DNA of 64,000 nucleotides from an uncultured Solirubrobacteraceae bacterium (GCA_964588985.1 CAZPQW010000008.1:32001-96000); one strand, 5' to 3'. Numbered from the stretch's first letter, positions 35,693 through 54,575 are shown. Translations and numbers: made by a program. Notes: generated by a model not told the origin, from the sequence alone.

Positions 35693-35724
35693 CCAAATTG
35701 TTGCGGCTGACATAAGCTCGACCG

Positions 35725-37843: not shown

Positions 37844-39526
37844 CTAGAAGACGCGACCGAACCGCGTCGCGATGTCGTAAGGGTAGATGTACATGGTCAT
37901 CGCTTCGAAGCGATAGGCGGCGAGCGGCTTCCCGAGCCCCGCGGGAAGCGCGCGGACTTCGATGCCGTTGGCGTCCACCACGAGGAACGTGTGCCGCCGC
38001 TGTGGGACGTACCACGCCGGCACGTACGCCTGGAAGCCCGGGCAGAGGTTCGTGCCTTCAGGGTTTTCGCAGTCCTCCACGGGTCTGAGAAGCACGCGGT
38101 TGTGAGAGGCCCACGTCACGCCGGACGCATCACCGAAGTTGGTGTAGCCGACCTGCACGTGGTTGGCCGCGGCGATGCGGATGATGTTCTCTCCGCTGCT
38201 GGCGGTCGTCTTGGTGACGTTCACATAGTCGCTGGTCAGGCCCACGAGGCTCGCGACGAAGAACACCGACGCGCCGAGCGCGATCAGCCATCGTGTCGCC
38301 GAGCGCCTCGCCATGAGCAGGGGGATCACCGCGCCCACCGCGAAGAGGGCGGTCGCGTAATACGATTCGTGCGTCGTCGTCGGACCTTCCCCCGCTATCC
38401 AGAACGCGCCTGCCGCGCACGCCGGGGAGCTGACCCAGTAGATGATGTGAAGGGAGCGCGCGAGCTCGCCGGGCGGTCGCGAGAGGGCCCGGCGAAGGCC
38501 GGACCAGACGAACGTGCCGGCGGTCCAGAGGCCGACGACGATCAGCGCGAGCAGCGCAGCCGACATCACCACGTCGCTCGCGATCCCCAGCGCGGCGTGC
38601 ATCGGGCCCGGCGCTTCGGTTCCGAGATAGCCGTTGAAGAGCTGCTTCAGCCCCTTGAACAGCAGTTCCGCCCTGGCCGGGAGTTCCGCCAGGGTCGCGG
38701 TGTGAATCGGCGAGGGCAGCAGGAGGAAGCCTTCCGCTTTCATGATCGCCGCCGTGATCTTCTCCACCGGGATCGACACGGCCACCGTCGTCAGGGCGGA
38801 TACGGCGAGCAGTCGGGAGCGCCTGTCTCGCTGTGCGGCCGCGAACAGCGCGGTGAGCGCGAGCGGGACGACGGTCGTGATCGCCAGCAGCAGATCGGAG
38901 GCGAGACACGCGCCGACCACGACGCCCAGGATCGGCGGGACCGCGAACGTCGTCAGCCGCCGTCGTCCCTCCTCGCGCGTCAGCCAGATCAGGTACGCGC
39001 CCACCAGCGCGGTGCACGGATAGACCGTGTTGTGCGAGAACGGCGCCATGAAGAACGTCAGCGCTATCGGCGAGGCGACGACGCCGAGGAGCACCGCGAG
39101 GATCGCCGCGCGGCGGCCGGCCAGCTGCTGGACCGACCACCCCACGATCAGGGCGGTGATGAAGAACAGCAGCGTCGGCGCGACGCTCCACAGCTCCCGG
39201 TGCAGCGGCAGCTTCGCGGTCAGCAGCCCGAACCAGAGCGAGGCCCACTGCGGGGAGGAGCCCATCACCGTATGCCCGCCGGTGCCCGTTTCGACGAGCG
39301 TTTCCGGCATCACGTATGCAGAGCCGACGCTCGGGTTCCACGCGAGTGCCGCGAGGTTATGCGGCAGTTGCGCTGCGAACACGACCAGATAGCCGGCCGC
39401 GATCGCGAACGGGACGAGCCAGGGCAGGAGGCTTGCGTCGAGCGAGCGCGGGAAGGAGCCGTCCCGGGCGATCGCCTCCGCGTGCCCCCACGGCTCGCCG
39501 CCGACGTCAATCTTGCTGCGGGCCAA
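37844..39526 (-). CDS. Polytopic membrane protein, possible GT-C glycosyltransferase
   Basis: Many TMs plus a C-terminal soluble domain; paralog of the next gene. Confidence 0.7.
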   Translation of the reverse strand: MARSKIDVGGEPWGHAEAIARDGSFPRSLDASLLPWLVPFAIAAGYLVVFAAQLPHNLAALAWNPSVGSAYVMPETLVETGTGGHTVMGSSPQWASLWFGLLTAKLPLHRELWSVAPTLLFFITALIVGWSVQQLAGRRAAILAVLLGVVASPIALTFFMAPFSHNTVYPCTALVGAYLIWLTREEGRRRLTTFAVPPILGVVVGACLASDLLLAITTVVPLALTALFAAAQRDRRSRLLAVSALTTVAVSIPVEKITAAIMKAEGFLLLPSPIHTATLAELPARAELLFKGLKQLFNGYLGTEAPGPMHAALGIASDVVMSAALLALIVVGLWTAGTFVWSGLRRALSRPPGELARSLHIIYWVSSPACAAGAFWIAGEGPTTTHESYYATALFAVGAVIPLLMARRSATRWLIALGASVFFVASLVGLTSDYVNVTKTTASSGENIIRIAAANHVQVGYTNFGDASGVTWASHNRVLLRPVEDCENPEGTNLCPGFQAYVPAWYVPQRRHTFLVVDANGIEVRALPAGLGKPLAAYRFEAMTMYIYPYDIATRFGRVF

Positions 39527-41243
39527 GGCGCGAGGCGATGTCGTAGGGGTATATGTACATGCTCATCGCTCCCAGCCGATATGTGGCGAGCGGCTTGCCG
39601 AGGCCGGGCGGGAGGGAGCTGACCCAGCCTTCGCCGCTCACCGTCAGCAGGAAGGTGTGGCGTTCCCGGGGTACGTACCACGCCGGCGTGCTCATCAGGT
39701 AGAAGGGGCAGATGTCGGCGCCCTGTGGGTTTTCGCACGCCATCAGCGGCCTGACGGTCACGCGCCCGTGCGTGATCCACGTGAAGACCGACGTTCCGTA
39801 GCCGCCGTAGCCGACCGGCACGTTGTTCGCGCGGGCGATTCGGGTGACGCTCGCGGTGTCAGCGGCGATCCCGTTGGTTAGGTTCATGTAATTGCCCGTC
39901 AGCCCCACGAGGCTCGCGAGGAAGAAGATCGAAGCGCCCACGGGAACCAGGATGCGGCCCAGCCGGCCGGCGGACAGCAGCAGCGGTATCACCGCGGCCA
40001 CCGAGAACAGGGCGGTCGCGTAATACGATTCGTGGAGGTCCGTCCCGCCGCCCGTTTCCGCCGCGATCCAGAACACGGCGCACACCGAGGCCGCCGACCC
40101 AACCCAGTAAACGACGTGCAGAGAGCGGGCCAGCTCATCCGGCGTCTGCGCGCCGCGCCTGCGCAGCGCCGCCCAGATGAGCCTCGCCGTGGCGAGTATC
40201 CCGAGCACGATCAGCGCGAGCAGGGCAGCGGACATGACCACGTCGCTCGCGAGCCCCAGCGCGGGGTGAAGGGTGCCGGGCGCGGTCGGGCCGCCCAGAT
40301 AGCCGTTGAAGAGGCCCTTCAAGCCCTTGAACAGGAGCGTCGCGCGTTCGGGGAGTTCCGACAGCGGTACCGCGTGGGCAGGCGTGGGCAGCTTGAGATA
40401 CCCGGACGAGCGCATGATCGACGAGATCAGCGAGGACACCCCGAGCGCCACCGCCAACGTGCTCAGGGCCGACACGGCGAGCACGCGCGCACGGCGGCCC
40501 GGTTGCACGCCGGCGAGGATCGCCGTCACGGCCAGCGGGACGATCGCCGTGGCCACGAACAGCAGGTCCGATGCCAGGCACGCGCCGACCGCCACCCCCG
40601 CGAGCGGCGGCACCGCCCAGGTCAACGCCGGCCTTCGTCCCTCTCCGCGCGCCAGCCAGACGAGGTACGCGCCGAGCAGGGCGGTGCCCGGGTACACGAA
40701 GTTGTGCGCGTTGGGCGCCATGAAGAACACGAGCGCGAACGGCGAGGCGATCACGCAGATCAGCACGGCGAGGATCGCCGCGCGTCGGGTGCTCAGGCGC
40801 GCGACCGACCAGCCGACGATCAGGGCGGTCGCGAGGAACAGCAGCGTCGGCGCGATCTCCCACAGCTGGCGATGCAGCGGCAGCCCCGCCGTGAGCAGGC
40901 CGATCCACAGCGACAGCCACTGCCCCGAGGAGCTGATCACGGTGTTGCCCCCGGAGCCTGAGCCGGCGAGCGTTTCCGGCAAGGCGAAGGCCGACGCGTA
41001 GTCTGGGTCCCACTGCAGCTCGGTCACGTTGCGCTGCAGGTGCACTACGAACACCACGACATACACGGTCGCGATCGCGAGCGGGAGCTGCCACAGCAGG
41101 GTGAGGAGCTTGTCTCCACCCAGCCTGTCGGCCAGGGGGCGCGCGGACCAGTGCGCGGAGGTGGTGTTCGCGACGCCTGGTGCGCCCGCCGCCTCCGACG
41201 CCAGGTCCGCGTCGGCCGAGTGTCGATGCTCACGCCACCACAT
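39507..41243 (-). CDS. Polytopic membrane protein, possible GT-C glycosyltransferase (tandem paralog)
   Basis: Shared 'LPLHR.LW..APT', 'CLASDLL', 'HESYYATALF', 'YIYPYDIA'; 'WDPD' in first loop. Confidence 0.7.
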   Translation of the reverse strand: MWWREHRHSADADLASEAAGAPGVANTTSAHWSARPLADRLGGDKLLTLLWQLPLAIATVYVVVFVVHLQRNVTELQWDPDYASAFALPETLAGSGSGGNTVISSSGQWLSLWIGLLTAGLPLHRQLWEIAPTLLFLATALIVGWSVARLSTRRAAILAVLICVIASPFALVFFMAPNAHNFVYPGTALLGAYLVWLARGEGRRPALTWAVPPLAGVAVGACLASDLLFVATAIVPLAVTAILAGVQPGRRARVLAVSALSTLAVALGVSSLISSIMRSSGYLKLPTPAHAVPLSELPERATLLFKGLKGLFNGYLGGPTAPGTLHPALGLASDVVMSAALLALIVLGILATARLIWAALRRRGAQTPDELARSLHVVYWVGSAASVCAVFWIAAETGGGTDLHESYYATALFSVAAVIPLLLSAGRLGRILVPVGASIFFLASLVGLTGNYMNLTNGIAADTASVTRIARANNVPVGYGGYGTSVFTWITHGRVTVRPLMACENPQGADICPFYLMSTPAWYVPRERHTFLLTVSGEGWVSSLPPGLGKPLATYRLGAMSMYIYPYDIASRLGPQQD

Positions 41244-41467: not shown

Positions 41468-42091
41468 ATGTCACTGTCCGACAACAGTCACAGCGTCACC
41501 TACCTGTCCGCGGCCGCCGACCTGGCGTGGACGATCGAGCCATGCGACCTCGACGCGATGGCGCGGGGGCTCGCGGCGGTCCGTGAGCGCCGCGGCAGGC
41601 TGTTCATCCTCGGGGTGGGCGGTGGCGCCGGACACGCTTCGCACGCGGTCAACGACTTCCGCAAGCTGTGCGCGATCGAGAGCTACGCGCCGACCGACAA
41701 CGTCTCCGAGCTGACCGCACGGACCAACGACGATGGCTGGGAGACGGCGTACAGCGCTTGGCTGGAGGTCTCGCGGCTGTCCGAGCGCGACGCGCTGCTC
41801 GTGTTCTCCGTCGGCGGCGGATCGCGCGAGCACAACGTCTCCACGAATCTGGTGCGGGCGATGGAGGCCGCACACGAGGCCGGGGCGTCGATCTACGGCG
41901 TCGTCGGCGCTCCCGGCGGCACGCTCGGGGAACTCGCCGACGTGGCGATCCGCATCGAACCGCCGGCGGCGCTGCGCACCCCTCTCGTGGAGTCGTTTCA
42001 AGCGGTTGTCTGGCACGCGCTCGTCTCCCATCCAGAGCTTGCGGTCAAAGAAGGCCACTGGGAGTCGCTCGCCGCACCCGCCAAGCCGTGA
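41468..42091 (+). CDS. SIS-domain phosphosugar isomerase (GmhA/LmbN-like)
   Basis: 'GVGGGAGHASHAVND', 'TARTNDDG', 'FSVGGGS', 'ESFQAVVWH'. Confidence 0.88.
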   Translation: MSLSDNSHSVTYLSAAADLAWTIEPCDLDAMARGLAAVRERRGRLFILGVGGGAGHASHAVNDFRKLCAIESYAPTDNVSELTARTNDDGWETAYSAWLEVSRLSERDALLVFSVGGGSREHNVSTNLVRAMEAAHEAGASIYGVVGAPGGTLGELADVAIRIEPPAALRTPLVESFQAVVWHALVSHPELAVKEGHWESLAAPAKP

Positions 42092-42744
42092 GCGCCGGCT
42101 GGGCCTTCGCGCCCGACCGCGGTCCCATGGTGCTCGCGTCAGCTTCCCGCGAAGGTCCCGCGCGCAGCCCGCGAGCGGCGGTGTTCCTGGATCGCGACGG
42201 AGTCATCAACGAGCTGATCGCGGACCCGATCACCGGGCGGGGCGAGTCTCCGCTGCGCGTGGAGGACGTGAGGCTCCTCCCCGGCGCCGCCGCGGCGGTC
42301 GCACTCCTCGCGCGGGCCGGCTACGTGCTGGTGTGCGTCTCCAATCAGCCCGCGGCCGCGAAGGCCACCGTATCGCTCGCAGGGCTGCGGGACGTGCACG
42401 AGCGAGTGATCGAGCTGCTGGCCCGCGAGGGTGTCCGTCTCGACCGCTCCTATCTGTGTCCACACCATCCCGAAGGCGTGGTGGCCGAGCTCGCCGGGGC
42501 GTGCGACTGCCGCAAGCCACGCCCCGGGATGCTGGATGCGGCCTGCGACGCGCTCGCCCTCGACCGTGGCGGATCCTGGATGGTCGGAGACACCGACGCG
42601 GATATCGGAGCGGGCCTCGCGGCCGGATGTCGGACGCTGATGATCCGCAACTCGGGCAGCGCTCACAAGCGTTTGCAGGGATTCCACGCGGACGCCATCG
42701 CCGACAGTCTCATCGACGGGATCGAGCGGCTTCCCCTCGATTAA
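42088..42744 (+). CDS. HAD-IIIA sugar bisphosphate phosphatase (GmhB/LmbK-like)
   Basis: 'FLDRDGVIN', 'SNQP', 'CPHHP..CDCRKP.PGM', 'MVGD'. Confidence 0.9.
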   Translation: MSAGWAFAPDRGPMVLASASREGPARSPRAAVFLDRDGVINELIADPITGRGESPLRVEDVRLLPGAAAAVALLARAGYVLVCVSNQPAAAKATVSLAGLRDVHERVIELLAREGVRLDRSYLCPHHPEGVVAELAGACDCRKPRPGMLDAACDALALDRGGSWMVGDTDADIGAGLAAGCRTLMIRNSGSAHKRLQGFHADAIADSLIDGIERLPLD

Positions 42745-42802
42745 ACAGAGACATTCACACAAATCGTCGCTCGTTATGGTGGCGCTCGACAGGGAATTCA
42801 TC

Positions 42803-43513
42803 ATGCTCGATCAGATCTCCACACGCATATTCGCCGACGGCGCCGACCTCGACGGCATCCTCGCTCTTGCCGCCGATCCACACATATCGGGATTCACCAC
42901 CAACCCGACGTTGATGCGCAAGGTGGGACTCACTGACTACGGGCGCTTCGCGCAGGAGCTGCTCGAGCGCGTCACCGAGCACCCGATCTCCTTCGAGGTG
43001 TTCGCCGACACCGCTCCGGAGATGCGCCGCCAGGCCCACACGATCGCCTCCTGGGGAGAGAACGTGTACGTGAAGATCCCCGTCACGTCGACGACCGGTG
43101 AGTCGATGGCGCAGCTGGCGAGAGAGCTCTCCGAGGATGGGGTGAAAGTGAACGTGACCGCGCTGTTCACCACCGCGCAGGTCGAGCTGATCGCGGCGGC
43201 GGTCGCGAACGGCGCGCCGTCGTACATCTCCGTGTTCGCCGGCCGCATCGCGGACGCGGGAGTCGATCCGATCCCGATCATGGCGCGCTCACTCGAGATC
43301 ATGGAGCAGGCGCCCCACGCGGAGCTGATCTGGGCCTCGCCGCGGGAGATCCTCAACCTCGTCCAGGCAAACGAGATCGGCTGTCACATCATCACGATCA
43401 CCCACGACCTGCTGAAGAAGCTCGACAGCCTCGGCAAGAGCCTCGAGCAGTACTCGCTCGAGACCGTCCAGATGTTCCACGACGACGCGTTGGCCGCGGG
43501 CTTCACCCTCTAG
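42803..43513 (+). CDS. Small transaldolase (LmbR-like)
   Basis: 'FADGAD', 'GFTTNPTL', 'YVKIP', 'VNVTALF', 'SVFAGR'. Confidence 0.92.
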   Translation: MLDQISTRIFADGADLDGILALAADPHISGFTTNPTLMRKVGLTDYGRFAQELLERVTEHPISFEVFADTAPEMRRQAHTIASWGENVYVKIPVTSTTGESMAQLARELSEDGVKVNVTALFTTAQVELIAAAVANGAPSYISVFAGRIADAGVDPIPIMARSLEIMEQAPHAELIWASPREILNLVQANEIGCHIITITHDLLKKLDSLGKSLEQYSLETVQMFHDDALAAGFTL

Positions 43514-43517
43514 TCGC

Positions 43518-44501
43518 GTGAGTAGAGCCTGCATCACCGGTGGCGCGGGGTTCATCGGCAGCAACCTCGCCGATCGGCTCGTCGAGCGCGGATTCGAGGT
43601 CGCGATCCTCGACGACTTCAGCACCGGGCGTCGCGAGTTCGTCACGGAGCTCGAGAACACGCCGGGCGTGCGGCTGATCGAGGGCGACGTGCGCGACATC
43701 TCCGCGGTAGAGAGCGCCGTCGAGGGCTGCGACTGGGTCTTTCACCTGCAGGCGAACGCCGATCTGCGTGGCGGCGTGGAACATCCGCGGCGCGACCTCG
43801 AACAGAACACGATCACGACCGCGAACGTGCTCGAGGCGATGCGACGCCACGGCGTCAGCCGGATCGTGTTCTCCTCCACCGGCTCCGTCTACGGCGAGCC
43901 GGAGGTCTTCCCAACCCCGGAGGACGCCCCCTTCCCTGTGCAGACCTCGCTGTACGCGGCGTCCAAGCTCGCCGGCGAGGGTCTGATCGAGGCCTACGCG
44001 ACCGGCTTTGGCTTCACGGGCGTGATCTGCAGATTCGTGTCGGTGCTCGGCGAGCGCTACACCCACGGGCACGTGTTCGACTTCTACCGCGCGCTCAAGC
44101 GCGACCCCACGCGCCTGCGCGTGCTCGGCGACGGCCGCCAGGAGAAGTCCTACCTGTACGTACAGGACTGCGTCGCGGCGATCCTCGCCGCGGTCGATCG
44201 CCACGGCGAGGATCCGGGCGCGCACATCTACAACCTCGGGACCGACGAAACCCTCGTGGTCGACGAGTCGATCGCGCTGATCGCCGGGCACCTCTCCGCC
44301 TCGCCCGAGATCGAGCACACCGGCGGGCGTCGGGGATGGGTCGGCGACAGCCCGCTCATCCGCCTCGACACCACGCGCATCCGCAGCCTCGGCTGGCGCC
44401 CGCAGCTGACCATCGAGCAGGCCGTGGTCCGCACGCTCGAGTGGTTCGACGCCAACGAGTACGCGTGGGCCGAACAGGAGATCGAGAGCGCGCTGTCATG
44501 A
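43518..44501 (+). CDS. NAD-dependent nucleotide-sugar epimerase (LmbM-like)
   Basis: 'TGGAGFIG', 'SSTGSVYG', 'YAASK'. Confidence 0.92.
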   Translation: MSRACITGGAGFIGSNLADRLVERGFEVAILDDFSTGRREFVTELENTPGVRLIEGDVRDISAVESAVEGCDWVFHLQANADLRGGVEHPRRDLEQNTITTANVLEAMRRHGVSRIVFSSTGSVYGEPEVFPTPEDAPFPVQTSLYAASKLAGEGLIEAYATGFGFTGVICRFVSVLGERYTHGHVFDFYRALKRDPTRLRVLGDGRQEKSYLYVQDCVAAILAAVDRHGEDPGAHIYNLGTDETLVVDESIALIAGHLSASPEIEHTGGRRGWVGDSPLIRLDTTRIRSLGWRPQLTIEQAVVRTLEWFDANEYAWAEQEIESALS

Positions 44502-45484
44502 GCGTCATCTTCAGCCGCGCGCCCTTGCGGATCTCGCTCGGCGGGGGCGGCACCGACCTGCCCTCCTACTACCGCGAGCACGGCGGCTTCCTCGTCTCGG
44601 GCGCGATCGACAAGTACGCCTACATGCTCACCCACACCACCTTCCAGCGGCGCTACAGGATGAAGTACTCCGAGCTGGAGGAGGTCGAGGAGATCAGCCA
44701 GATCCGCCACCCGATACTGCGCGAGAGCCTGCTGCGCCACTGGGCCGGCAGCCCCCTCGAGATCGCCTCCGTGGCCGACGTCCCGGCCGGCACCGGGATG
44801 GGGTCCTCCGGCGCATACACGGTGGCGCTGCTGAAGGGCCTCGCGCGCGCACGCTGCACCGCGATCACCCCCGGGGACCTGGCCGAGGCGGCGTGCGAGA
44901 TCGAGATCGACGTGCTCGGCGAGCCGGTCGGCAAGCAGGACCCCTACGTCGCCGCCCACGGCGGGATCTGCGCCTACACGTTCAACCCGGACGGGAGCGT
45001 CGACGTCGAGCCGCTCGAGCTGGACCCCACGACGCTGAGGCGGATGCGCGACCAGCTGCTGCTGTTCTACACCGGCGAGGCGCGCTCGGCCTCGCACATG
45101 CTCGCCGACCAGGACACGCGTTCGAAGGCCGGGGACGAGCAGATGCTCGCCAACCTGCATCGCACGAAGGAGCTGGGTCGGCAGAGTCACGAGCTGCTGC
45201 GCGGCGGGCGCCTGGAGGAGTACGCGGAGCTGATGCACGAGCACTGGGAGCACAAGCGCGCCCGCTCGCCGGGGATGAGCGACGGCCGCATCGACATGCT
45301 GTATGAGATCGCGCGCCGCACCGGCGCCATCGGCGGCAAGCTCGTGGGCGCCGGCGGCGGCGGGTTCCTGCTCGTCTACACGCTCAGGCCCGAGGAGACC
45401 AGGCAGGCGATGGCGGAGGAGAACGCGCAGGAGCTCGCGTTCGACTTCGAGTTCTCCGGCGCATACGCGAGCGAGTACGCATGA
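44498..45484 (+). CDS. GHMP sugar-phosphate kinase (HddA/LmbP-like)
   Basis: 'RAPLRISLGGGGTD', 'PAGTGMGSS', 'GKQD', 'GAGGGG'. Confidence 0.92.
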   Translation: MSVIFSRAPLRISLGGGGTDLPSYYREHGGFLVSGAIDKYAYMLTHTTFQRRYRMKYSELEEVEEISQIRHPILRESLLRHWAGSPLEIASVADVPAGTGMGSSGAYTVALLKGLARARCTAITPGDLAEAACEIEIDVLGEPVGKQDPYVAAHGGICAYTFNPDGSVDVEPLELDPTTLRRMRDQLLLFYTGEARSASHMLADQDTRSKAGDEQMLANLHRTKELGRQSHELLRGGRLEEYAELMHEHWEHKRARSPGMSDGRIDMLYEIARRTGAIGGKLVGAGGGGFLLVYTLRPEETRQAMAEENAQELAFDFEFSGAYASEYA

Positions 45485-46515
45485 GCAGAGACGGCCTGAG
45501 GGTGGCCGTGCTCGGCTGCGGGCAGATCGGCGCCAAGAGGGCACAGGCCCTCGCGCCACAGGACACGATCGTCGGCTGCTGCGACCTGAACATCGCGGCT
45601 GCCGAGGAGCTCGCCGCGCGTCACGGCGCCCGTGTGTGCGCCACGCCACAGGAGCTGGTCGCGCTCGATCCGGACGTGGTGGTCGTCGCCGCCGTCCACG
45701 ACCAGCTCGCGGGGCTCGTCGAGCTGTCCCTCGCCGCGGGGGCGCACGTGCTCGTCGAGAAGCCCGCCGCGATCTCGACCGCGCAGATCGATCGCCTGCT
45801 CGTCTGCCAGCGGATCAGCGGCCGACTCGTGAAGGTCGGCTTCAACCACCGCTTCCACCCCGGGATCGCCCGCGCCGTCGAGGAGGTTCATTCCGGGCGC
45901 CACGGCGAGCTGATGCACCTGCGAGCCCGCTACGGCCACGGCGGGCGCCCCGGCTACGACCGCGAGTGGCGCGCCCAGCCGGCCCGCTCGGGCGGCGGCG
46001 AGCTGATCGACCAGGGGATGCACCTGCTGGACCTCACCAACTGGATCGCCGGTCCGCTGCCGCTGCACTCCGCGCTGCTGCGCACGCAGTTCTGGGACGC
46101 GGAGGTCGAGGACAACGCCGCGCTGTTGCTCGGCGAGCCGGGGCAGCGGACCGGCCCGTGGGCGATGCTGCACGTGAGCTGGACGGAGTGGAAGAACCTC
46201 TTCTCGCTCGAGATCTACTGCCATACCGCCAAGCTCCAGATCGACGGGCTCGTGCGCTCCTACGGACCGCAGCGGCTGCGGATCTACACGATGGGACCGG
46301 AGCTCGGGCCCCCCGCGCTCGAGGAGATCCATTACTCGGCGGAGGATGGCTCGTGGGCCGCGGAATGGGAGCACTTCGCGGAGGCCGTGGTATCCGGCGA
46401 CGGGCGCGCGCTGCTCGGCGATCTGCGCTCCGCGCGCGACGCCTGGGAGCAGGTGGAGGCCGCGTACGAGACCGACGTGTACGCCGACATGCGCTCGTTG
46501 GCGACGCTTCGATAG
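45481..46515 (+). CDS. Gfo/Idh/MocA oxidoreductase (LmbZ-like)
   Basis: 'GCGQIG', 'VEKP', 'GFNHRFHP', 'GGGELIDQGMH'. Confidence 0.9.
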   Translation: MSRDGLRVAVLGCGQIGAKRAQALAPQDTIVGCCDLNIAAAEELAARHGARVCATPQELVALDPDVVVVAAVHDQLAGLVELSLAAGAHVLVEKPAAISTAQIDRLLVCQRISGRLVKVGFNHRFHPGIARAVEEVHSGRHGELMHLRARYGHGGRPGYDREWRAQPARSGGGELIDQGMHLLDLTNWIAGPLPLHSALLRTQFWDAEVEDNAALLLGEPGQRTGPWAMLHVSWTEWKNLFSLEIYCHTAKLQIDGLVRSYGPQRLRIYTMGPELGPPALEEIHYSAEDGSWAAEWEHFAEAVVSGDGRALLGDLRSARDAWEQVEAAYETDVYADMRSLATLR

Positions 46516-46528
46516 TAGAGGTCACGAG

Positions 46529-47926
46529 ATGGACGCCCCAGTCGAGACGAATCGCTCCGAGCCGATCGCCGTGGTGGGCCTCTGGCACCTGGGGAGCGTG
46601 ATCGCGGCATGCCTGGCGGACGCCGGCAACGACGTCATCGGCCTCGACCCCGACCGCGCCGTCGTCGTCGGGCTCGGCGAAGGTCACCCGCCGGTTTCCG
46701 AGCCGGGACTCCAGGAGCTGCTCGCCGGCAACGCCTCACGCATGGAGTTCACCAGCGACCCGAGGGAGCTCGCGCGGGCGCGCTGCGCGTGGCTGACATT
46801 CGACACACCCGTCGCCGACGACGACGTCGCGGACGTCGAATGGGTGCTCGACCAGGCGGTCGAGCTGCTCGCGCACCTGCGCGAGGACACGCTCGTGGTC
46901 GTCTCCTCGCAGCTGCCCGTCGGCAGCAGCGCGCGCCTGCACGAGCGCTGTGCCGCCGCGCGCGGCCCGGCCGGTGCGCTGCGCTTCGCGTGCGTGCCCG
47001 AGAACCTCAGGCTCGGCAGCGCACTCGAGTCGTTCCGCGAGCCCGACCGGATCGTCGCGGGGGTGCGCACCGAGGCCGACCGCGACGAGCTCGCCGAGCT
47101 GCTCGCGCCGTTTTGCTCGGAGGTGCAGTGGATGCGGGTGGAGTCCGCGGAGATGACCAAGCACGCGCTCAACGGGTTCCTCGCCACGTCGGTCGCGTTC
47201 ATCAACGAGATCGCGTCGATCTGCGAGTCGGTCGGAGCCGACGCGCAGGAGGTCTCGCGCGGCCTCAAGAGCGAGCGGCGGATCGGCCCGCGCGCGTACC
47301 TAGGTCCGGGCGACGCGTTCGCCGGCGGAACGCTCGCGCGCGACATCGGCTTCCTGCGCGGCCTGGCCAAGCGCGAGGGGCTGCCCGCACACGTGTTCGC
47401 CGGAGTCGCGGACGGCAACGCCGCGCACAAGCACTGGACCCGGCGCAAGCTGACCGAGCTGCTCGGCGAGGATCTCGAGGACGGACATGACGTCCTGCGC
47501 GACCGCCGCGTGGCGATCTGGGGGCTCACCTACAAGCCGGGCACCGACACCCTGCGTCGGTCGAGCGCGATCGAGCTGTGCCGATGGCTGCTCACCGAGG
47601 GCGCCAACGTGCGCGCCCACGACCCGGCCGTCAGTGCGCTGCCCTCGGACCTCGCGACCAGGATCGAGCTGTGCGACTCCCCGTTGGAGGCCGCCCGCGA
47701 CGCGGAGATCCTCGTCGTGTGCACGCCCTGGCCCGACTACCTCGAGGTGCCCGCTGAGGAGGTGCTCGAGGCCATGGCGTATGCGAGTGTGATCGACCCG
47801 GCGGGAGCGCTCAGCGCCACGCTCGGCCACCACCCGGGCCTGCGCTACGTGCGCGTCGGCTCGCCGTCGGAGCTCCCCGTGAGCAGGGGAACCGCCACCA
47901 CGGCCGCGCAAGAGGCTCGCAGATGA
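46529..47926 (+). CDS. UDP-glucose/GDP-mannose dehydrogenase-family protein lacking the catalytic Cys (LmbL-like)
   Basis: 'GLWHLG', 'SAEMTKHALN', 'AFAGGTLARD' in place of GFGGSCFPKD, 'GLTYKPGTD'. Confidence 0.85.
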   Translation: MDAPVETNRSEPIAVVGLWHLGSVIAACLADAGNDVIGLDPDRAVVVGLGEGHPPVSEPGLQELLAGNASRMEFTSDPRELARARCAWLTFDTPVADDDVADVEWVLDQAVELLAHLREDTLVVVSSQLPVGSSARLHERCAAARGPAGALRFACVPENLRLGSALESFREPDRIVAGVRTEADRDELAELLAPFCSEVQWMRVESAEMTKHALNGFLATSVAFINEIASICESVGADAQEVSRGLKSERRIGPRAYLGPGDAFAGGTLARDIGFLRGLAKREGLPAHVFAGVADGNAAHKHWTRRKLTELLGEDLEDGHDVLRDRRVAIWGLTYKPGTDTLRRSSAIELCRWLLTEGANVRAHDPAVSALPSDLATRIELCDSPLEAARDAEILVVCTPWPDYLEVPAEEVLEAMAYASVIDPAGALSATLGHHPGLRYVRVGSPSELPVSRGTATTAAQEARR

Positions 47927-48798
47927 GCGAGGTCCTCGCCGGGCGCACCGCGCTGATCACGGGGGCAAGCCACGGACTCGGGTTGGAGATCGCGCGCGCG
48001 TATCTCGACGCGGGCGCGGCCGGCATCGTCATCTGTGGGCGCGACCGGATCGCGCTGGAGGGCGCGCTCGGCGAGTTGAGCGAGCGGGCGGCCCCGGGCC
48101 AGACGGTGCTCGGCGAGCCGGCGGACGTTTCGCGCGCGGACGACGTCGAGCGGCTTGTGGCACTTGCGCTGGACCGGCTGGGGGAGGTCACGATCCTCGT
48201 GTCGAACGCCGGCGTGTACGGGCCGAAGGGCGCGATCGAGGACGTGGACTGGCTCGAGTGGACGCGGGCGGTGGAGATCAACCTGCTCGGCTCGGTGCTG
48301 CCCGCGCGGGCGCTCGTCCCGCACTTCCGCGAGCGTGGCTACGGCAAGATCGTCCAGCTCTCAGGGGGAGGAGCGACCGGCCCGCTCCCGGGTCTCAGCG
48401 CCTACGCTGCCTCCAAGGCGGCGGTCGTGCGCTTCGCGGAGACGCTCGCGGAAGAGCTGCGCGAGAGCCGCGTCGACGTCAACGCGATCGCGCCCGGGGC
48501 GCTCAACACGCGGATGCTCGACGAGGTTCTCAACGCCGGCGCCGAGCGGGTGGGGGAGGACTTCTACCGGCGCGCGCTCGAGCAGCAACGCAGCGGCGGA
48601 GTCCCGCTGAGCAAGGGGGCCGAGCTGGCGGTGTTCCTCGGCTCGGCCGCGAGCGACGGCATCACCGGCAAGCTGCTCAGCGCGGTCTGGGATCCATGGG
48701 CGGATCTCCCGGCGCACGTCGCGGAGCTCGAATCGGACGTCTACACCCTGCGCCGGATCGTGCCCGGAGATCGGGGACTGGACTGGGGGGAGGTGTGA
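47923..48798 (+). CDS. SDR-family oxidoreductase
   Basis: 'TGASHGLG', 'SNAG', 'YAASK'. Confidence 0.92.
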   Translation: MSEVLAGRTALITGASHGLGLEIARAYLDAGAAGIVICGRDRIALEGALGELSERAAPGQTVLGEPADVSRADDVERLVALALDRLGEVTILVSNAGVYGPKGAIEDVDWLEWTRAVEINLLGSVLPARALVPHFRERGYGKIVQLSGGGATGPLPGLSAYAASKAAVVRFAETLAEELRESRVDVNAIAPGALNTRMLDEVLNAGAERVGEDFYRRALEQQRSGGVPLSKGAELAVFLGSAASDGITGKLLSAVWDPWADLPAHVAELESDVYTLRRIVPGDRGLDWGEV

Positions 48799-49535
48799 GT
48801 GCCCGCGCGGAGCCGCCTCCGGTGTGCATCCTCGCGGGCGGACGCGGAACGCGCCTCGGAGAGCGCGCCCGCGGCGTGCCGAAGCCGCTCGTCGAGGTCG
48901 CCGGAGAGCCGTTCCTGATCCACCAGCTGCGGCTGCTCGCGACGCACCGCGTGCGCGAGGTCGTGATCTGCGTCGGATACCGGGGCGAGATGATCGAGTC
49001 GCGCATCGGCATGGAGCGCTTCGGGATCGAGATCGCCTACAGCTACGACAGCCCGGCCCTGGACGGCACGCTCGGCGCGATCCGGCGTGCGCTCGCGCTG
49101 CTGGGCGAGCGCTTCCTCGTCCTCTACGGGGACACGTATCTACGCGTCGACTACGAGGCCGCGGACAGGGCGTGGCGCGACAGCGGGCTCGCGGCGCTGA
49201 TGGTCGTGCTGCGCAACGATGGGAGATGGGACGCCTCGAACGTCCGCTACGAGCGCGGGCGCGTCCTCGCGCACGACAAGCAAGCCCCCACGGCCGACAT
49301 GCGGTGGATCGACTACGGCCTGGGCGGGCTCACGGCGCGGGCGCTGGAGGCCGTGCCGGAGTCCGAGTCCGACCTCTCGGCGCTCTACCGCGAGCTCGCC
49401 CGGCGCGGACAGCTGTGCGGCTACCCGGTCGACGAGCGCTTCTACGAGATCGGCACGCCCGACGCCCTTGAGGAGACGGCGGAGTTCCTGCGCGAAAGCG
49501 CCCGCGACGACGCTCAGGCCGCGCGCCGCGCGTAG
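48795..49535 (+). CDS. Sugar-1-phosphate nucleotidyltransferase (HddC/LmbO-like)
   Basis: 'ILAGGRGTRL', 'PKPL', 'YGD', 'EIGTP'. Confidence 0.9.
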   Translation: MSARAEPPPVCILAGGRGTRLGERARGVPKPLVEVAGEPFLIHQLRLLATHRVREVVICVGYRGEMIESRIGMERFGIEIAYSYDSPALDGTLGAIRRALALLGERFLVLYGDTYLRVDYEAADRAWRDSGLAALMVVLRNDGRWDASNVRYERGRVLAHDKQAPTADMRWIDYGLGGLTARALEAVPESESDLSALYRELARRGQLCGYPVDERFYEIGTPDALEETAEFLRESARDDAQAARRA

Positions 49536-50506
49536 ACGCCACGGCGCATCGCGAGCGAGTGGCGCAGGTCGATCGAGTGGTCGAGCGACTCCGCCGGTGG
49601 CAGCGGCAGCCGTGGGCTCGACCCTCCCGCGCGCCAGCCCGCGAGCCGTCCTCGCAGCGCGAGCAGATCGCGGGAGATCCACAGGTCGCCGCACACCACG
49701 ATCGCCTCGGTGACCAGCGTCCTCAGAGTCGTGGAGCCGTGCAGGAGGCCGTAGCGGCGCAGCATGTACCCGCGCCCGTAGCCCGCCTGACGACGTTGCC
49801 ACGGTGAGCGATATCCGTGCGTCGCGGAGCCGATGTGGATTCCCACGGCATCCGGTTCGGCCACCGAGCGCCAGCCCGCGACACGCAGTCTGACCGCGAG
49901 GTCGAAGTCCTCCATGTAGGCGACGATCGTCTCGTCCAGGCCACCCAGCTCCTCCCACGCCGCGCGCCGGTAGAGCCCGGCGGAGCCTCCGGCGCCGAGG
50001 AACACGGGCTTGGAGTCATGCGCACGCGAGGCCGGGAGCCCCTGCAGGCGTGGGAAGCCGGCGAGGATCGGGTCTGCGGCAAAGCCCATGCCGTCGATCA
50101 GCTCCTCGCCCGGTTTGAGCATCAGCGAGCCGACCGAGCCCACGCCCGGGTCCCCTTCGAGGTGGCGGACCATTCGCTCAAGGAAGTCGGGACGACAGTC
50201 GACGTCGTTGTTGAGCAGCAATACGGCTTCGCCCGAGCCCGCGGCGACGCCCAGGTTGCACGCAACGGGGAAGCCGAGATTCTCGTCGATCTCCACGACC
50301 TGCACCGCCGGCCACTCGGCGTACAACCGCGCCCGCGTGTCGTCGGTCGAGCCGTTGTCCACCACGATCACGTGGTGCGGGATCGTCTGGGCACGCAGGT
50401 GACGCAGGCAGCTCTCGGTGAGCTCAAAGCGGTTGTAGGCGAGCATCACCACGTCGATCGACATCGGCATGGGGGCAATGTAGTCGCTGCGGTCCGTGTT
50501 CGCCAC
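49514..50506 (-). CDS. GT2 glycosyltransferase (WbbL-like)
   Basis: 'VDNGSTD', 'NLGF...CN', 'LLNND', 'YMEDFDL'. Confidence 0.9.
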   Translation of the reverse strand: MANTDRSDYIAPMPMSIDVVMLAYNRFELTESCLRHLRAQTIPHHVIVVDNGSTDDTRARLYAEWPAVQVVEIDENLGFPVACNLGVAAGSGEAVLLLNNDVDCRPDFLERMVRHLEGDPGVGSVGSLMLKPGEELIDGMGFAADPILAGFPRLQGLPASRAHDSKPVFLGAGGSAGLYRRAAWEELGGLDETIVAYMEDFDLAVRLRVAGWRSVAEPDAVGIHIGSATHGYRSPWQRRQAGYGRGYMLRRYGLLHGSTTLRTLVTEAIVVCGDLWISRDLLALRGRLAGWRAGGSSPRLPLPPAESLDHSIDLRHSLAMRRGVYARRAA

Positions 50507-50693: not shown

Positions 50694-52046
50694 TTGCGGG
50701 CCGTGCAGTCTCCACGTACAAGCTTGACGACGCGCACCACGTGTCGGATCTGCGGCTCGCCGCATCTGGTGCCGGTGCTATCGCTGGGTGAGCAGTACAT
50801 CGCGGGCGCGTTCGCGGAGCCCGGCGGCGAACAGCCGGTCTCGCGACGCATACCGCTCGACCTGGTGAGATGCGACACGGCGCGCAACGAGAACGGCTGC
50901 GGCCTGGTGCAACTGCGTCACACCGTGCCTGGGGCCATTCTCTATCGCTCTTACTGGTATCGCAGCGGCGTCAACCGCACGATGACGCGAAACCTGCACG
51001 AGATCGCGGCTCAGGCGGAGGAGATGGTGAACCTGGGCCCTGGTGATTTGGTAATCGACATCGGCTGCAACGACGGCACGCTGCTCGACGGGTACAAGGC
51101 CTCTGATCTGAAGTACCTGGGCTTCGATCCCTCCGACGTCGGTCGCTACGCGGTCGAGAAGGGCTATGAGGTGGTGCGCGACTTCTACGCGTATGAGCAC
51201 CTGCGCGAGCGGCACGTCGACCGCAAGGCCCGGATCATCACCAGCATCGCGATGTTCTATGACCTCGAGTATCCGTGCGCGTTCGTCGAAGCCGTCTCGC
51301 GGGCGCTCGCGGACGACGGTGTGTGGGTGATGGAGCTGCACTACCTGCCCGCGATGCTCGACATGAACCAGTTCGACGCGATCGTGCACGAGCATCTGGA
51401 GTACTACTCGCTCGCGGTGATCGAGCGGCTGCTGGGCGACGCCGGCCTGCGGGTCGTACGCGCCGAGCTAAACGACATCAACGGGGGCTCGATACGCCTC
51501 TTCATACGCCGCGCCAATCGCTTCGCGCCCGCGGGCGAACACGCGGAGAAACTCCAGCAGCTGCGCGTTCGCGAGTTCGAGATGGCGCTCGACGCGCCCG
51601 AACCTTACGAGCGCTTCGCGTCGGCGACCGAAGCGGTCCGCGACAGCCTGGCGTCGATGTGTCGCACGCTCGTCGAGGAAGGCAAGACGATCCACGTGTA
51701 CGGCGCATCGACGAAGGGCAACACGATCCTCCAATACGCGGGCATCGACAGCACGCTCGTTCCCTACGCGGCCGACCGCAACCCCGACAAGCACGGCTCG
51801 GAGACGATCGGCACGAAGATCCCGATCATCAGCGAGGAGCAATCCCGGGAGATGCGTCCCGACTACTACCTCGCGCTGCCGTGGCACTTCCTCGACGAGT
51901 TCCTCGATCGCGAGCGCGAGTTCCTCGAGCGCGGAGGTCAGTTCATAGTGCCGATGCCCGAGGTTCACCTCGTCTCGGCGATGCCGGATGTGCAGATCGA
52001 ATCGCGCGCGCATGAGGGTGGGCTCGTCTCACACACCAACTCCTGA
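50694..52046 (+). CDS. NDP-sugar C-methyltransferase-family protein (Zn-finger plus SAM domain)
   Basis: 'CRICGS', 'DIGCNDGTLL', 'HEHLEYY', 'YGASTKGNT', 'LPWHF'; start uncertain. Confidence 0.88.
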   Translation: MRAVQSPRTSLTTRTTCRICGSPHLVPVLSLGEQYIAGAFAEPGGEQPVSRRIPLDLVRCDTARNENGCGLVQLRHTVPGAILYRSYWYRSGVNRTMTRNLHEIAAQAEEMVNLGPGDLVIDIGCNDGTLLDGYKASDLKYLGFDPSDVGRYAVEKGYEVVRDFYAYEHLRERHVDRKARIITSIAMFYDLEYPCAFVEAVSRALADDGVWVMELHYLPAMLDMNQFDAIVHEHLEYYSLAVIERLLGDAGLRVVRAELNDINGGSIRLFIRRANRFAPAGEHAEKLQQLRVREFEMALDAPEPYERFASATEAVRDSLASMCRTLVEEGKTIHVYGASTKGNTILQYAGIDSTLVPYAADRNPDKHGSETIGTKIPIISEEQSREMRPDYYLALPWHFLDEFLDREREFLERGGQFIVPMPEVHLVSAMPDVQIESRAHEGGLVSHTNS

Positions 52047-52065
52047 CCGCGATCTGACCGAGTCA

Positions 52066-53070
52066 ATGCCGATTCGCGTCGGAATCCTCAGCACATGGAA
52101 CACTCGCTGCGGGATCGCGGAGTACACGCGGCACCTCGTGGACGCCATGCGCAGGCAGGGCGAAGTGGAGGTGACTGTGCTGAGCTCGCGCAATTTCGGA
52201 GAGCGCGCCCTGGCGCCGCCGGAGGATTGGGTCGAGCCCGCCTTCGACGTGCAGATCTGGCATCCCGAACACAGCTTCGATCTCGACGTCGAGACGATCC
52301 TCGATCTCGACCTCGACGTTCTCCACGTCCAGTACAGCAACCTGTTCTACGACCGCGGTCGTCTGATCGAGCTGTTGCGGCGCTTCCCGGGGGTGACGGC
52401 GCTCACCTACCACGACAAGGGCGGCGTGCGCTCCTTCCCGTACGACCTGCCCGATCTTCTCTACGCCCACCGTGAGGATGTGGGCGTCGGGCCGCGGCGT
52501 TTCATCCCTCAGGGAATCGACCTGCGCAGGCCGGTCGTCAAGACGTTCGGACTGGGCAAGTCACGGCTGGACGTGATCGGGGAGATCTGCGATCGCAACG
52601 ACTGGGACTTCCAGCACAGCTTCGGCGAGGATCGCTGGCTCGAGAGCGAGGAGCTCTTCGCCTGGCTGAGGGACTCCGACGCGATCGTGCTGTGGTACGA
52701 CGAAGACCCGCGGTCTGGCGGAAGCGCCGGCGCGCCGCTGGCCATCGGCACCCGCAGACCGGTGTTCGTCAACGACACGGAGTGGTTCAGCGATCTCCCC
52801 GAGCGCACCTCGACGCTGCGCAAGCTTCACACTCCTGAGGAGCTCGAGCTGGCGATGCGCGAGGTGCTCGACGATCCCTACGCCGAGAGGCGCACCTGGG
52901 ATCGGGTCGCCCAGACGCTGCTGAGCGACTTCCGCGCGGCGCGTTCGAGGCCGCCGATGCATGTCCCCAGGACGTGCGATCCAGTGCGGGGGCGCATCTT
53001 CGTGACGCTCGACCACAAGCCCCTTCGGCGCGTTGCTCGCCAAATGAAGTCGCTCGCACCCAGCGTGTGA
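52066..53070 (+). CDS. Glycosyltransferase, GT-B/GT4-like, compact
   Basis: 'STWNTRCGIAEYT', 'LHVQY', 'DAIVLWY'. Confidence 0.7.
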   Translation: MPIRVGILSTWNTRCGIAEYTRHLVDAMRRQGEVEVTVLSSRNFGERALAPPEDWVEPAFDVQIWHPEHSFDLDVETILDLDLDVLHVQYSNLFYDRGRLIELLRRFPGVTALTYHDKGGVRSFPYDLPDLLYAHREDVGVGPRRFIPQGIDLRRPVVKTFGLGKSRLDVIGEICDRNDWDFQHSFGEDRWLESEELFAWLRDSDAIVLWYDEDPRSGGSAGAPLAIGTRRPVFVNDTEWFSDLPERTSTLRKLHTPEELELAMREVLDDPYAERRTWDRVAQTLLSDFRAARSRPPMHVPRTCDPVRGRIFVTLDHKPLRRVARQMKSLAPSV

Positions 53071-54575
53071 GCGATCCATCGCGTCCGGTCGCACAGCCGG
53101 TGGACGTCTGGGGCGAGACGCCGTCCGACGTGCTCGACACGCCGGATGCGGGGGTGGCGGCGATCCGCGGTGGCGCCATGCGCATCAGCGGCTACGCGAT
53201 CTGCATCGCGGCGAGCGTCGTCTCCTCCGCGCTGATGCTCCGACATTTGGGTGTGGTGGCCACCGGCGAGTACGTCACCGTGCTGTCGCTCGTGACGATC
53301 AGCAGCAGCATCACCGACGGCGGCCTGGCGACGATCGGGGTGCGCGAGCTGAGCACGCTTCCACCAGCGCGCGCCCGGAGCTTCTTCCGAAACCTCGCGG
53401 GGGCGCGTCTGCTGTTCATCGCCGGCGGGATGATCTTCGCGCTCGCGTTCGCGCTCCTCAGCGGGTACTCCACGACGATGGTGGAGGGTGTGGTGTTCGC
53501 GAGCATCGGGTTCGCATCGCTCACCACGCAGACGACCTATCTGCTGCCGCTGATGGCCCGGTTGCGCTTGGACTGGGTGACCGCGGTCGAAACCCTGCGA
53601 CAGATCGGCGCGGCGGTCGTGGTGGTGATGCTCGTGCTCATCGGCGCGCCGCTGCTGCCGTTCTGGGCGGCGACGATCCCGGCCGGGATCGTGGCGACGG
53701 CGCTCGCGGCGGTCCTGATACGCCGATCGATGCCGCTGCTGCCCGCGTTCGACCGCGCCGTGTTGGGGCCACTCATACGTCGCACGCTGCCATATTCGCT
53801 GGCGACCGCCGTCGGCATCGTCTACTTCCGGCTCGCGATCCTGGTCATGTCGTACGTGTCCACCGGCCAGCAGACCGGCTACTACGGAGCCTCCTTCCGA
53901 ATCGTCGAAGCCCTGTTCGTGATCCCGCACCTGATCGTCGGGTCGACGCTCCCCATCTTCGCGAGGGCGGCGCGCGACGACCGCAAACGCCTGGACTACG
54001 CGCTCGGCCGCACGTTCGAGGTGTGCCTGCTGACGGGCCTGGCGGCGGGGCTCGCTCTCGTCACGGGCTCGCACTTCATCATCCAGGTCGTCGCGGGGCC
54101 GAAGTTCGCGCCAGCCGCCATCGTCCTGAGCATCCAGGGAGTCGCGCTGGTCGCGACGTTCGTGGGAGCGGTGTTCGGCTACGGGCTTTTGAGCCTCGAG
54201 CGCTATCGCGAGGTGCTCGTGATCAACCTGGGGGTTCTCCTGTTGAGCGGCCTGCTCACCGGCGTGTTCGCCTCGCGCTACGGTGCGCTCGGCGCGGCCG
54301 GCGCGACGACCTTCGTGGAGCTGCTCTACACGGGGCTGCTCGCCCTCGCGCTAGTTCGCGCGGGCGCCCGGCCGCAGACGTCGCTCGCCGGGATGGCCCG
54401 CTTCGTCTTCTCGGCGCTGCTCGGCGTGCCTCTCCTATTGGTCCCGGGCATCCCCGACGTCGCGAGGCCGGCACTGGCCGTTGCCGTCTACTGCGCGGCG
54501 CTGCTGGCGCTCGGCGCGGTGCCGCGCGAGATCCTGGTCCTGATTCCCGGCCTGCGTCGCAAACTGCCTCTCTGA
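53067..54575 (+). CDS. Wzx-like polysaccharide flippase
   Basis: About 14 TMs, 'RHLGVVATGEY', 'GYYGASFRI'. Confidence 0.88.
   Translation: MSDPSRPVAQPVDVWGETPSDVLDTPDAGVAAIRGGAMRISGYAICIAASVVSSALMLRHLGVVATGEYVTVLSLVTISSSITDGGLATIGVRELSTLPPARARSFFRNLAGARLLFIAGGMIFALAFALLSGYSTTMVEGVVFASIGFASLTTQTTYLLPLMARLRLDWVTAVETLRQIGAAVVVVMLVLIGAPLLPFWAATIPAGIVATALAAVLIRRSMPLLPAFDRAVLGPLIRRTLPYSLATAVGIVYFRLAILVMSYVSTGQQTGYYGASFRIVEALFVIPHLIVGSTLPIFARAARDDRKRLDYALGRTFEVCLLTGLAAGLALVTGSHFIIQVVAGPKFAPAAIVLSIQGVALVATFVGAVFGYGLLSLERYREVLVINLGVLLLSGLLTGVFASRYGALGAAGATTFVELLYTGLLALALVRAGARPQTSLAGMARFVFSALLGVPLLLVPGIPDVARPALAVAVYCAALLALGAVPREILVLIPGLRRKLPL

Follow-up and report, generated by a model that had tools for sequence, protein, structure and literature searches.

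We analysed a 64,000-nucleotide stretch of DNA from an uncultured Solirubrobacteraceae bacterium (GCA_964588985.1 CAZPQW010000008.1:32001-96000; hereafter the window, with positions counted from its first base) and concentrated on a block of nine genes at 41468-49535, which a sequence-only reading had described as a lincosamide-type gene set for a GDP-octose embedded in a surface-glycan locus. Calling of open reading frames (ORFs) and assignment to Pfam and NCBIfam families revealed that this interval is filled exactly by nine head-to-tail ORFs on the plus strand, G1 to G9, which we refer to as the cassette (Table 1). Neighbouring genes overlap by 4 bases at four of the eight junctions (G4/G5, G5/G6, G7/G8 and G8/G9), and the remaining gaps measure 4, 13, 35 and 58 bases, the last shrinking to 31 with the alternative G3 start; the start codons of G2, G3, G7 and G9 were set by alignment with relatives. 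The claim of nine tightly coupled genes in named families was borne out by these ORFs, family matches and overlaps; every one of the nine is intact, they are translationally coupled, and the observation as a whole was confirmed in every particular. The translations carry what we take to be the cofactor and catalytic motifs usual for these families: FLDRDGV in G2, the VKIP lysine motif in G3, YAASK in both G4 and G8, GTGMGSSGA in G5, EKP in G6, and GGRGTRLG in G9. The GC content of the window is high (0.57-0.73 over 2-kb windows), and Rfam and tRNA scans of its 64 kb gave no match.

Table 1. Cassette genes G1 to G9 and flanking features in the window, with the families and scores behind each assignment (GT, glycosyltransferase; SDR, short-chain dehydrogenase/reductase; NDP, nucleoside diphosphate; SAM, S-adenosylmethionine).
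Feature	Position	Strand	Assignment
G1	41468-42091	+	SIS isomerase, distant GmhA relative: Pfam SIS_2; NCBIfam gmhA 43.8 bits against cut-off 209
G2	42127-42744	+	HAD-IIIA phosphatase, GmhB/HisB-N type: Pfam Hydrolase_like/HAD; NCBIfam GmhB PRK08942 125.5 bits against 178
G3	42803-43513	+	Short TAL/FSA-type transaldolase: Pfam TAL_FSA 151 bits; alternative start 42776
G4	43518-44501	+	Extended-SDR NDP-sugar epimerase, GalE-like: Pfam Epimerase 166 bits; PDB GalE-like 3ehe 255 bits
G5	44498-45484	+	HddA-like GHMP anomeric sugar kinase: Pfam GHMP_kinases_N/C; NCBIfam HddA 128 bits against 600
G6	45481-46515	+	Gfo/Idh/MocA NAD(P) oxidoreductase: Pfam GFO_IDH_MocA plus C3
G7	46529-47926	+	UDP-glucose/GDP-mannose-dehydrogenase homologue: three UDPG_MGDP_dh domains
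G8	47923-48798	+	Classical SDR (TGxxxGxG, YxxxK): Pfam adh_short 155 bits
G9	48795-49535	+	Sugar-1-phosphate nucleotidyltransferase: Pfam NTP_transferase; NCBIfam MurU 99.9 and HddC 73.7 bits (cut-off 300), both sub-cut-off
Class I SAM methyltransferase	30733-31635	+	Pfam Methyltransf_11; homologue in 26 of 82 loci
GT2a	31632-32723	+	ArnC/GtrB/PgfS-type polyprenyl-phosphate GT: Pfam Glycos_transf_2; NCBIfam PgfS 242.9 and ArnC 160.2 bits (sub-cut-off)
GtrA-family small membrane protein	33217-33693	-	Putative flippase for lipid-linked sugar: Pfam GtrA_DPMS_TM 49.5 bits against 26.1
Accessory triad	33962-37830	+	GMC flavoprotein oxidoreductase 33962-35692; class-III aminotransferase 35725-37194; GNAT 37195-37830 (Pfam, NCBIfam)
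U1	37844-39526	-	Putative GT-C glycosyltransferase: polytopic membrane protein, about 8 hydrophobic segments; U2 paralogue (56% identical)
U2	39507-41243	-	Putative ArnT-like GT-C glycosyltransferase (from a structural model); directly upstream of G1 with U1
GT2b	49514-50506	-	Variable downstream glycan gene (Pfam, NCBIfam)
TylC3-type sugar C-methyltransferase	50694-52046	+	Methyltransf_13, Methyltransf_23 and Methyltransf_14 domains
GT4-like protein	51988-53070	+	Weakly GT4-like: sub-cut-off in Pfam (E 0.005)
Wzx-like MOP membrane protein	52974-54575	+	Weak match: NCBIfam Wzx_EPS 41 bits against 800; many hydrophobic segments
FkbM methyltransferase	54586-55476	-	Pfam, NCBIfam

The nine-gene set is a block conserved across phyla and is not peculiar to the window locus. 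We compared the window proteins by BLASTP with all ORFs of 82 loci, every one of them fetched through its G7 homologue: 80 genome loci, which are the best 80 of at least 554 G7 relatives among at least 600 GTDB species-genome stretches obtained with two subfamily-specific peptide patterns, together with a Lawsonia and a Rhizobium plasmid. When families were tallied at 35% identity or more, all nine were found in 46 loci and eight in another 12, the missing family being the divergent phosphatase (G2) in 8 of these 12. Individual genes were present in 82 (G7), 80 (G8), 75 (G4), 72 (G6), 68 (G5), 64 (G9), 58 (G1), 57 (G3) and 54 (G2) of the loci. The taxon labels of the 80 genome loci cover about ten phyla (30 Solirubrobacterales or Solirubrobacteraceae, 2 actinobacteria, 15 Chloroflexota, 12 Acidobacteriota, 6 Myxococcota or "delta proteobacteria", 2 Syntrophobacter-type, 3 labelled Pseudomonadota, 2 Planctomycetota, 2 Nitrospirota, 1 Lentisphaerae, 1 Obscuribacterales and 4 unclassified). 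Since 46 of the 82 loci, from some ten phyla, carry all nine families, the grouping lies far beyond chance.

Outside Solirubrobacterales the usual gene order is G4-G7-G8-G6-G5-G9-G1-G2-G3, with median identities to the window's proteins of 39% to 62%. Rhizobium jaguaris pRCCGE525c holds the nine families in a single run flanked by GT2, GT4 and acyltransferase genes, and within 17 kb of Lawsonia intracellularis plasmid 3 the annotation lists an epimerase, SIS, HAD-IIIA, transaldolase, nucleotide sugar dehydrogenase, SDR, Gfo/Idh/MocA, "galactokinase" and nucleotidyltransferase. SIS and transaldolase genes occurred together in 56 loci, and the 3 exceptions (L036, L041 and L065) are all cut by contig ends. 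Six or fewer families were found in 24 loci, of which 14 are short contigs or stop less than 1 kb from the last cassette gene.

The dehydrogenase homologue G7 had been labelled Cys-less, and alignment with the solved UDP-glucose dehydrogenase 4a7p (214 bits) bore this out: GGSCFPKD reads AGGTLARD, with Thr in the position of the catalytic Cys. Thr occupied that column in 142 of 151 sequences (G7 and its 150 best representatives at 50% clustering), and K211, N215 and D272 of G7, which we take to be the remaining catalytic residues of UDP-glucose dehydrogenase (Lys, Asn and Asp), were invariant in a 61-sequence alignment. Like the UDP-glucose 6-dehydrogenases 4a7p and 2y0e, G7 has a three-domain architecture and the active-site Lys, Asn and Asp, and it passes the NCBIfam TIGR03026 cut-off (267 bits; cut-off 189.8); it differs from them in the exchange of Cys for Thr, of GxGxxG for GLWHLG and of PEFLREG for PENLRLG, and in having an obligatory SDR partner. 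Because the thiol is absent and the acid-base residues are kept, the enzyme should stop after one two-electron oxidation, and a single oxidation of this kind would suit a secondary alcohol, for instance at C6 of a heptose or octose. The signatures of the subfamily are GLWHLG, SSQLPVG, PENLRLG, GGTLARD and SAEMxKHAxNAFLA, and its boundary is sharp: tblastn of 72,556 plasmids returned five records at 45-51% identity, the next best being at 35.6%. A protein atlas offered only generic "nucleotide sugar dehydrogenase" clusters for G7. We also observed that the Rossmann GxGxxG, at G7 residues 17-22, has its middle Gly replaced by a Trp that is conserved across the subfamily. The G6 subfamily is likewise distinct and strongly conserved (59 columns are invariant across 43 sequences drawn from many phyla); the predicted G7-G6 complex scored 0.00, a value that counts neither for nor against binding.

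A homologue of the SDR G8 was present in 80 of the 82 loci, in at least 67 of them adjoining G7 and sharing its strand. Moreover, in 6 of 8 unusually long G7 relatives Pfam placed a classical SDR (adh_short) and a G7-type domain in one protein, with adh_short N-terminal in P0122 and P0142 and C-terminal in P0133, P0235, P0243 and P0230. G8 is an original core member of the cassette and the closest partner of G7. The sequence-only reading had cast it as an SDR standing where, in lincomycin synthesis, the aminotransferase LmbS would act; that the cassette has no DegT-type aminotransferase and does have an SDR held, but the idea of a local stand-in did not, because G8 adjoins G7 in nearly all loci and is fused to it in some relatives. 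Separately, the precomputed Pfam list joins a Cys-less dehydrogenase-like domain to an epimerase-type domain in P0371. Long stop-to-stop ORFs in L058, L078 and L080 were considered as fusions and rejected, with Pfam finding one cassette family in each.

We then compared the cassette with the lincosamide sugar pathway of Streptomyces lincolnensis and S. caelestis. According to PMC5854111, LmbR makes an octulose by adding a C3 unit from fructose-6-phosphate or sedoheptulose-7-phosphate to ribose-5-phosphate; LmbN, LmbP, LmbK and LmbO then lead to GDP-octose, and LmbM, LmbL, CcbZ and CcbS to GDP-lincosamide, as tabulated in PMC12945683 (Table 1) and PMC4351081 (Table 2). Set against these tabulated roles, the eight-for-eight match of the cassette to the Lmb sugar enzymes held at the level of Pfam and NCBIfam families. 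Shared by both are a clustered transaldolase, SIS isomerase, GHMP kinase, HAD phosphatase and nucleotidyltransferase and, again at the family level, an epimerase, a nucleotide-sugar-dehydrogenase-like protein and a Gfo/Idh/MocA-type oxidoreductase (LmbM, LmbL and LmbZ). Protein lengths in the cassette are close to those of the Ccb counterparts in Table DS1-1 of PMC4351081 (CcbL 436, CcbR 222, CcbM 325, CcbN 202, CcbP 323, CcbO 232 and CcbK 185). If the published operon name lmbVTQRSOPZNML gives the gene order, its Gfo-kinase-nucleotidyltransferase run recurs as G6-G5-G9 in most loci outside Solirubrobacterales. Furthermore, the supplement of PMC4351081 listed in 2015, as the closest non-Lmb relatives of CcbK, CcbN, CcbP, CcbO and CcbZ, proteins of Solibacter, Sorangium, Acidobacterium and an uncultured acidobacterium, and lineages related to these hosts carry the cassette in our genome scan.

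The two systems also differ. Where the lincosamide pathway has LmbS, a DegT-type aminotransferase, the cassette has a classical SDR as its fixed ninth member, and neither the cassette nor the window contains a DegT/LmbS-type aminotransferase, the sole aminotransferase being of class III and 4 kb upstream. The cassette is also devoid of the carrier-protein fusions, the LmbT/C/D/E/F/V proteins and the resistance genes of lincosamide clusters, and its output would pass to a lipid carrier and GT-C enzymes, whereas the lincosamide output is a thio-sugar antibiotic. PDB matches to G1 and G3-G7 included no Lmb sugar enzyme; the best 80 of at least 554 G7 relatives included none from Streptomyces; and a search from P0267, the most Streptomyces-like representative, retrieved metagenome proteins only. 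The lincosamide pathway, the one characterised route with such a gene content, is the closest characterised analogue of the cassette and may descend from it.

The other pathway that invites comparison is that of GDP-D-glycero-alpha-D-manno-heptose, which shares four families with the cassette together with the logic of isomerising, phosphorylating, dephosphorylating and nucleotidylating a sugar. Its enzymes are the best named or solved relatives of G1, G2, G5 and G9, as seen also in PDB, where G1 matched phosphoheptose isomerases (E 6e-9) and G5 heptose kinases (E 3e-40). On this evidence the product could be a GDP-heptose derivative, with the transaldolase boosting sedoheptulose-7-phosphate, with G1, G5, G2 and G9 as divergent GmhA, HddA, GmhB and HddC, and with G4, G6, G7 and G8 modifying C4-C7 of the heptose; C6 of a heptose is likewise a secondary alcohol that a Cys-less dehydrogenase could oxidise, and G3 exceeds the cut-off of an NCBIfam family (TIGR02134; 321.9 bits, cut-off 281.95) that is named as a plain transaldolase. 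We nevertheless consider this outcome improbable. G1, G2, G5 and G9 all fall far under the curated NCBIfam cut-offs for the heptose enzymes (Table 1); in the cassette these four have a transaldolase and four redox or epimerase genes as obligatory partners; and the SIS gene is paired with a dedicated transaldolase at each uncut locus, in organisms expected to make sedoheptulose-7-phosphate anyway. To our knowledge, GDP-heptose loci do not include a transaldolase. Sedoheptulose-7-phosphate is an ordinary metabolite, and a route beginning with it should have no need of a transaldolase of its own.

Taken together, we lean somewhat, though not strongly, towards the view that the nine genes are one copy of an ancient, lineage-hopping operon whose product is a nucleotide-activated sugar of higher carbon number, probably an octose, destined for the cell envelope. 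In the corresponding pathway, whose steps are all proposed from gene families and gene linkage, G3 (LmbR-like) would transfer a C3 unit from fructose-6-phosphate or sedoheptulose-7-phosphate onto ribose-5-phosphate to give octulose-8-phosphate, which G1 (LmbN-like) would convert to octose-8-phosphate. Phosphorylation at C1 by G5 (LmbP-like), removal of the terminal phosphate by G2 (LmbK-like) and nucleotidyl transfer by G9 (LmbO/HddC-like) would yield an NDP-octose, probably GDP-octose. G4 (LmbM-like), G7 (LmbL-like), G6 (LmbZ-like) and G8 would then remodel C4 and C6-C8, with G7 turning the C6 secondary alcohol into a ketone and going no further and G8 acting after it as a ketoreductase. LmbL and CcbZ reportedly carry out a 6,8-dehydration jointly. 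By analogy with LmbL and LmbZ, our leading guess is a 6,8-dehydration followed by keto-reduction to an 8-deoxy-octose. The GDP-8-deoxy-octose predicted by the sequence-only reading is retained in part: octose is the leading reading from the gene families, and "8-deoxy" has the LmbL/LmbZ analogy as its one source.

The close partnership of G7 and G8, neighbours in almost every locus and a single protein in some relatives, would fit equally a dehydrogenase passing its ketone to a reductase with the oxygen retained, and no dehydratase-type family was found in the cassette with Pfam or NCBIfam. In that case G7 and G8 would invert C6 by oxidation and reduction, G6 would do likewise elsewhere on the sugar, and the product would be a fully hydroxylated NDP-octose epimer. 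We regard this as rather improbable, given that the cassette already has an epimerase (G4) and that LmbL and LmbZ, of the same families as G7 and G6, are assigned in the lincomycin sources cited above to the conversion toward a 6,8-dideoxy sugar.

The neighbourhood bears on where such an octose would go. About 10 kb upstream of the cassette, GT2a has C-terminal hydrophobic segments at residues 277-336; this combination of a GT2 with C-terminal membrane helices is that of enzymes loading sugar onto undecaprenyl phosphate. A GT2a homologue lay beside the cassette in 42 of the 82 loci (30 of 32 Solirubrobacterales-type loci and 12 of the 50 others), and a GtrA-family gene in 21 of the 32. U1 and U2 (560-578 residues) matched no Pfam or NCBIfam family. 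When an AlphaFold model of U2 was searched with Foldseek against PDB, the first 13 matches (ArnT, AglB, AftA, PimE, ALG3, STT3 and DPY19) were all what we take to be GT-C enzymes using polyprenyl-phosphate sugars; the best was ArnT (5ezm; E 5e-4, TM 0.41), and the atlas neighbours of U2 carry PMT_2. GT2a, GtrA and the putative GT-C neighbours point to delivery of the sugar on undecaprenyl phosphate to an envelope glycan: GT2a would load the sugar onto the lipid, GtrA would flip the lipid-linked sugar, and the two putative ArnT-like GT-C enzymes, U1 and U2, would transfer it to an envelope acceptor outside the membrane. The joint presence of an ArnC/PgfS-like GT2 and GtrA is shared with the known three-component systems (ArnC/ArnT; GtrA/GtrB/GtrC; CsbB/GtcA/YfhO; PgfS), as the GT-C fold of the adjacent membrane proteins would be; the locus differs from these systems in that its donor would be a dedicated higher-carbon sugar and in that its putative GT-C proteins match no Pfam or NCBIfam family.

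In Solirubrobacterales-type loci, the cassette, GT2, GtrA and class I methyltransferase genes lie between isoleucyl-tRNA synthetase (IleRS) and an alpha/beta-hydrolase plus fumarase. The other neighbours are variable inserts, found per 32 such loci in 6 (U1), 9 (U2), 4 to 6 (triad) and 5 to 9 (the block of GT2b, TylC3-type, GT4-like and Wzx-like genes), and the window carries every one of them. An earlier description of the flanks as GT2, GT4, Wzx and methyltransferase genes stood as regards two GT2 genes and three methyltransferases, but Wzx and GT4 are weak matches only and are not the partners of the cassette; its conserved partner is the ArnC/GtrB-like GT2, here with GtrA and putative GT-C proteins. 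That description had also overlooked the GMC/class-III aminotransferase/GNAT triad 4-8 kb upstream, which we recognised with Pfam. The pairing of a GMC oxidase with an aminotransferase recalls the alcohol-oxidation-then-transamination logic of aminoglycoside 6'-amination; the triad may oxidise, aminate and acetylate the sugar, and the final sugar of this strain could still be aminated. We picture the triad and the methyltransferases as strain-variable extras to the proposed pathway. To go with the TylC3-type C-methyltransferase, the window shows no NDP-hexose 4,6-dehydratase; the keto-sugar substrate of this methyltransferase might be a cassette intermediate. In other phyla the cassette neighbours included PMT_2, YfhO, DUF2079, Wzy_C, Bac_transf, GT4 and LPG_synthase_TM proteins (23 proteins scanned, 6 of them matchless). 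LPG_synthase_TM proteins, which are MprF flippase-like, lie in or beside the cassette in Lawsonia (L001, 10911-11894) and in a Chloroflexota locus (L048, 8008-9027), and may serve as a flippase where GtrA is absent.

This neighbourhood also speaks to whether the locus could be a secondary-metabolite cluster for a lincosamide-like antibiotic, as the eight-family match to the Lmb sugar genes might suggest. We judge this very improbable: adenylation, condensation, carrier-protein, LmbT-type, mycothiol-related and resistance genes are all missing from the 64-kb window, the cassette is surrounded by ArnC-like GT2, GtrA, putative GT-C, Wzx-like and GT2 genes, and in many relatives the cassette sits between the housekeeping IleRS and fumarase genes. 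The surface-glycan reading of the locus is well supported, and the preference of the sequence-only reading for a surface-glycan locus over an antibiotic cluster was upheld by the ArnC-like GT2, GtrA and putative GT-C neighbours and by the lack of antibiotic-assembly genes in the window. Of its overall interpretation, the family-level Lmb match and the surface-glycan setting survived, while the SDR as a stand-in and the Wzx/GT4 partners did not.

Several observations weigh against an envelope octose as the product. The NCBIfam family matched by G3, TIGR02134, is named by NCBI as an ordinary transaldolase, and nothing in the G3 sequence shows a preference for ribose-5-phosphate. The G7-G8 pair could equally be an oxidise-then-reduce epimerase that retains the oxygen, and the U2 model, built on a 15-sequence alignment, is of moderate confidence (pLDDT 65, pTM 0.65). 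We know of no octose from the envelope glycans of the groups that carry the cassette. Ten loci (L045, L046, L050, L054, L055, L059, L062, L069, L071 and L075) have modification genes and no SIS, phosphatase or transaldolase, although they are not cut within 1 kb; 7 of these ten also lack G9, and L062 and L075 hold G7-G8 only. The two halves of the cassette can therefore be separated, or the modifiers may act on another sugar there. Lastly, the best non-Lmb relative of CcbL was only 33% identical in 2015, according to the supplement of PMC4351081, so that LmbL may belong to the Thr subfamily as a distant member or fall outside it. The likeness to the Lmb and Ccb proteins is one of families, roles and lengths, from which common descent, a C8 product and 8-deoxygenation are drawn by analogy.

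Our literature search, to which subscription papers and bioRxiv supplements were not open, found no account of the cassette and none of an unbranched octose as part of an envelope glycan; octose and Lmb terms were confined to lincosamide, paulomycin/yersiniose-type branched octose, apramycin and eukaryotic octulose contexts. Tentatively, and with more doubt than confidence, we propose that an octose, most likely 8-deoxy, is a widespread unseen envelope component in at least ten phyla, made by this operon and delivered through undecaprenyl phosphate and GT-C enzymes, and that the lincomycin and celesticetin sugar pathway captured the operon, with the terminal SDR giving way to an aminotransferase. 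If this is true, an octose pathway seen as an oddity of two Streptomyces antibiotics would prove to be a common surface-sugar route, carried by soil Actinomycetota, Chloroflexota, Acidobacteria, myxobacteria, a rhizobial megaplasmid and a plasmid of the pig pathogen Lawsonia. It would give envelope glycobiology a new class of monosaccharide, explain the origin of the lincosamide sugar genes and provide a function for the orphan Cys-less subfamily, at least 150 clusters at 50% identity, which is currently annotated as UDP-glucose 6-dehydrogenase.

Some further features were noted elsewhere in the window. A 3.6-kb segment is duplicated at 1860-5490 and 12910-16540 (offset 11,051 bases; 100% identical over about 3.2 kb) and encodes a protein of 207 amino acids and another of 928 with a weak PD40 beta-propeller match. 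Between its two copies lie an IS3-like (7839-8702) and an IS30-like (9556-11142) transposase, and the duplication is either a recent insertion-sequence-associated event or an assembly artefact. Four paralogous ORFs of about 207-233 amino acids (2015-2638, 13066-13689, 22109-22735 and 26174-26875), which matched no family, have in common a 5' region of 222-300 nucleotides at 68-100% identity. A further PMT_2-type GT-C protein is encoded at 188-1846, a family-X DNA polymerase with a PHP domain at 22811-25342, and a fibronectin-III-rich protein of 1020 amino acids at 18866-21928, in a stretch with strong AT and GC skew.

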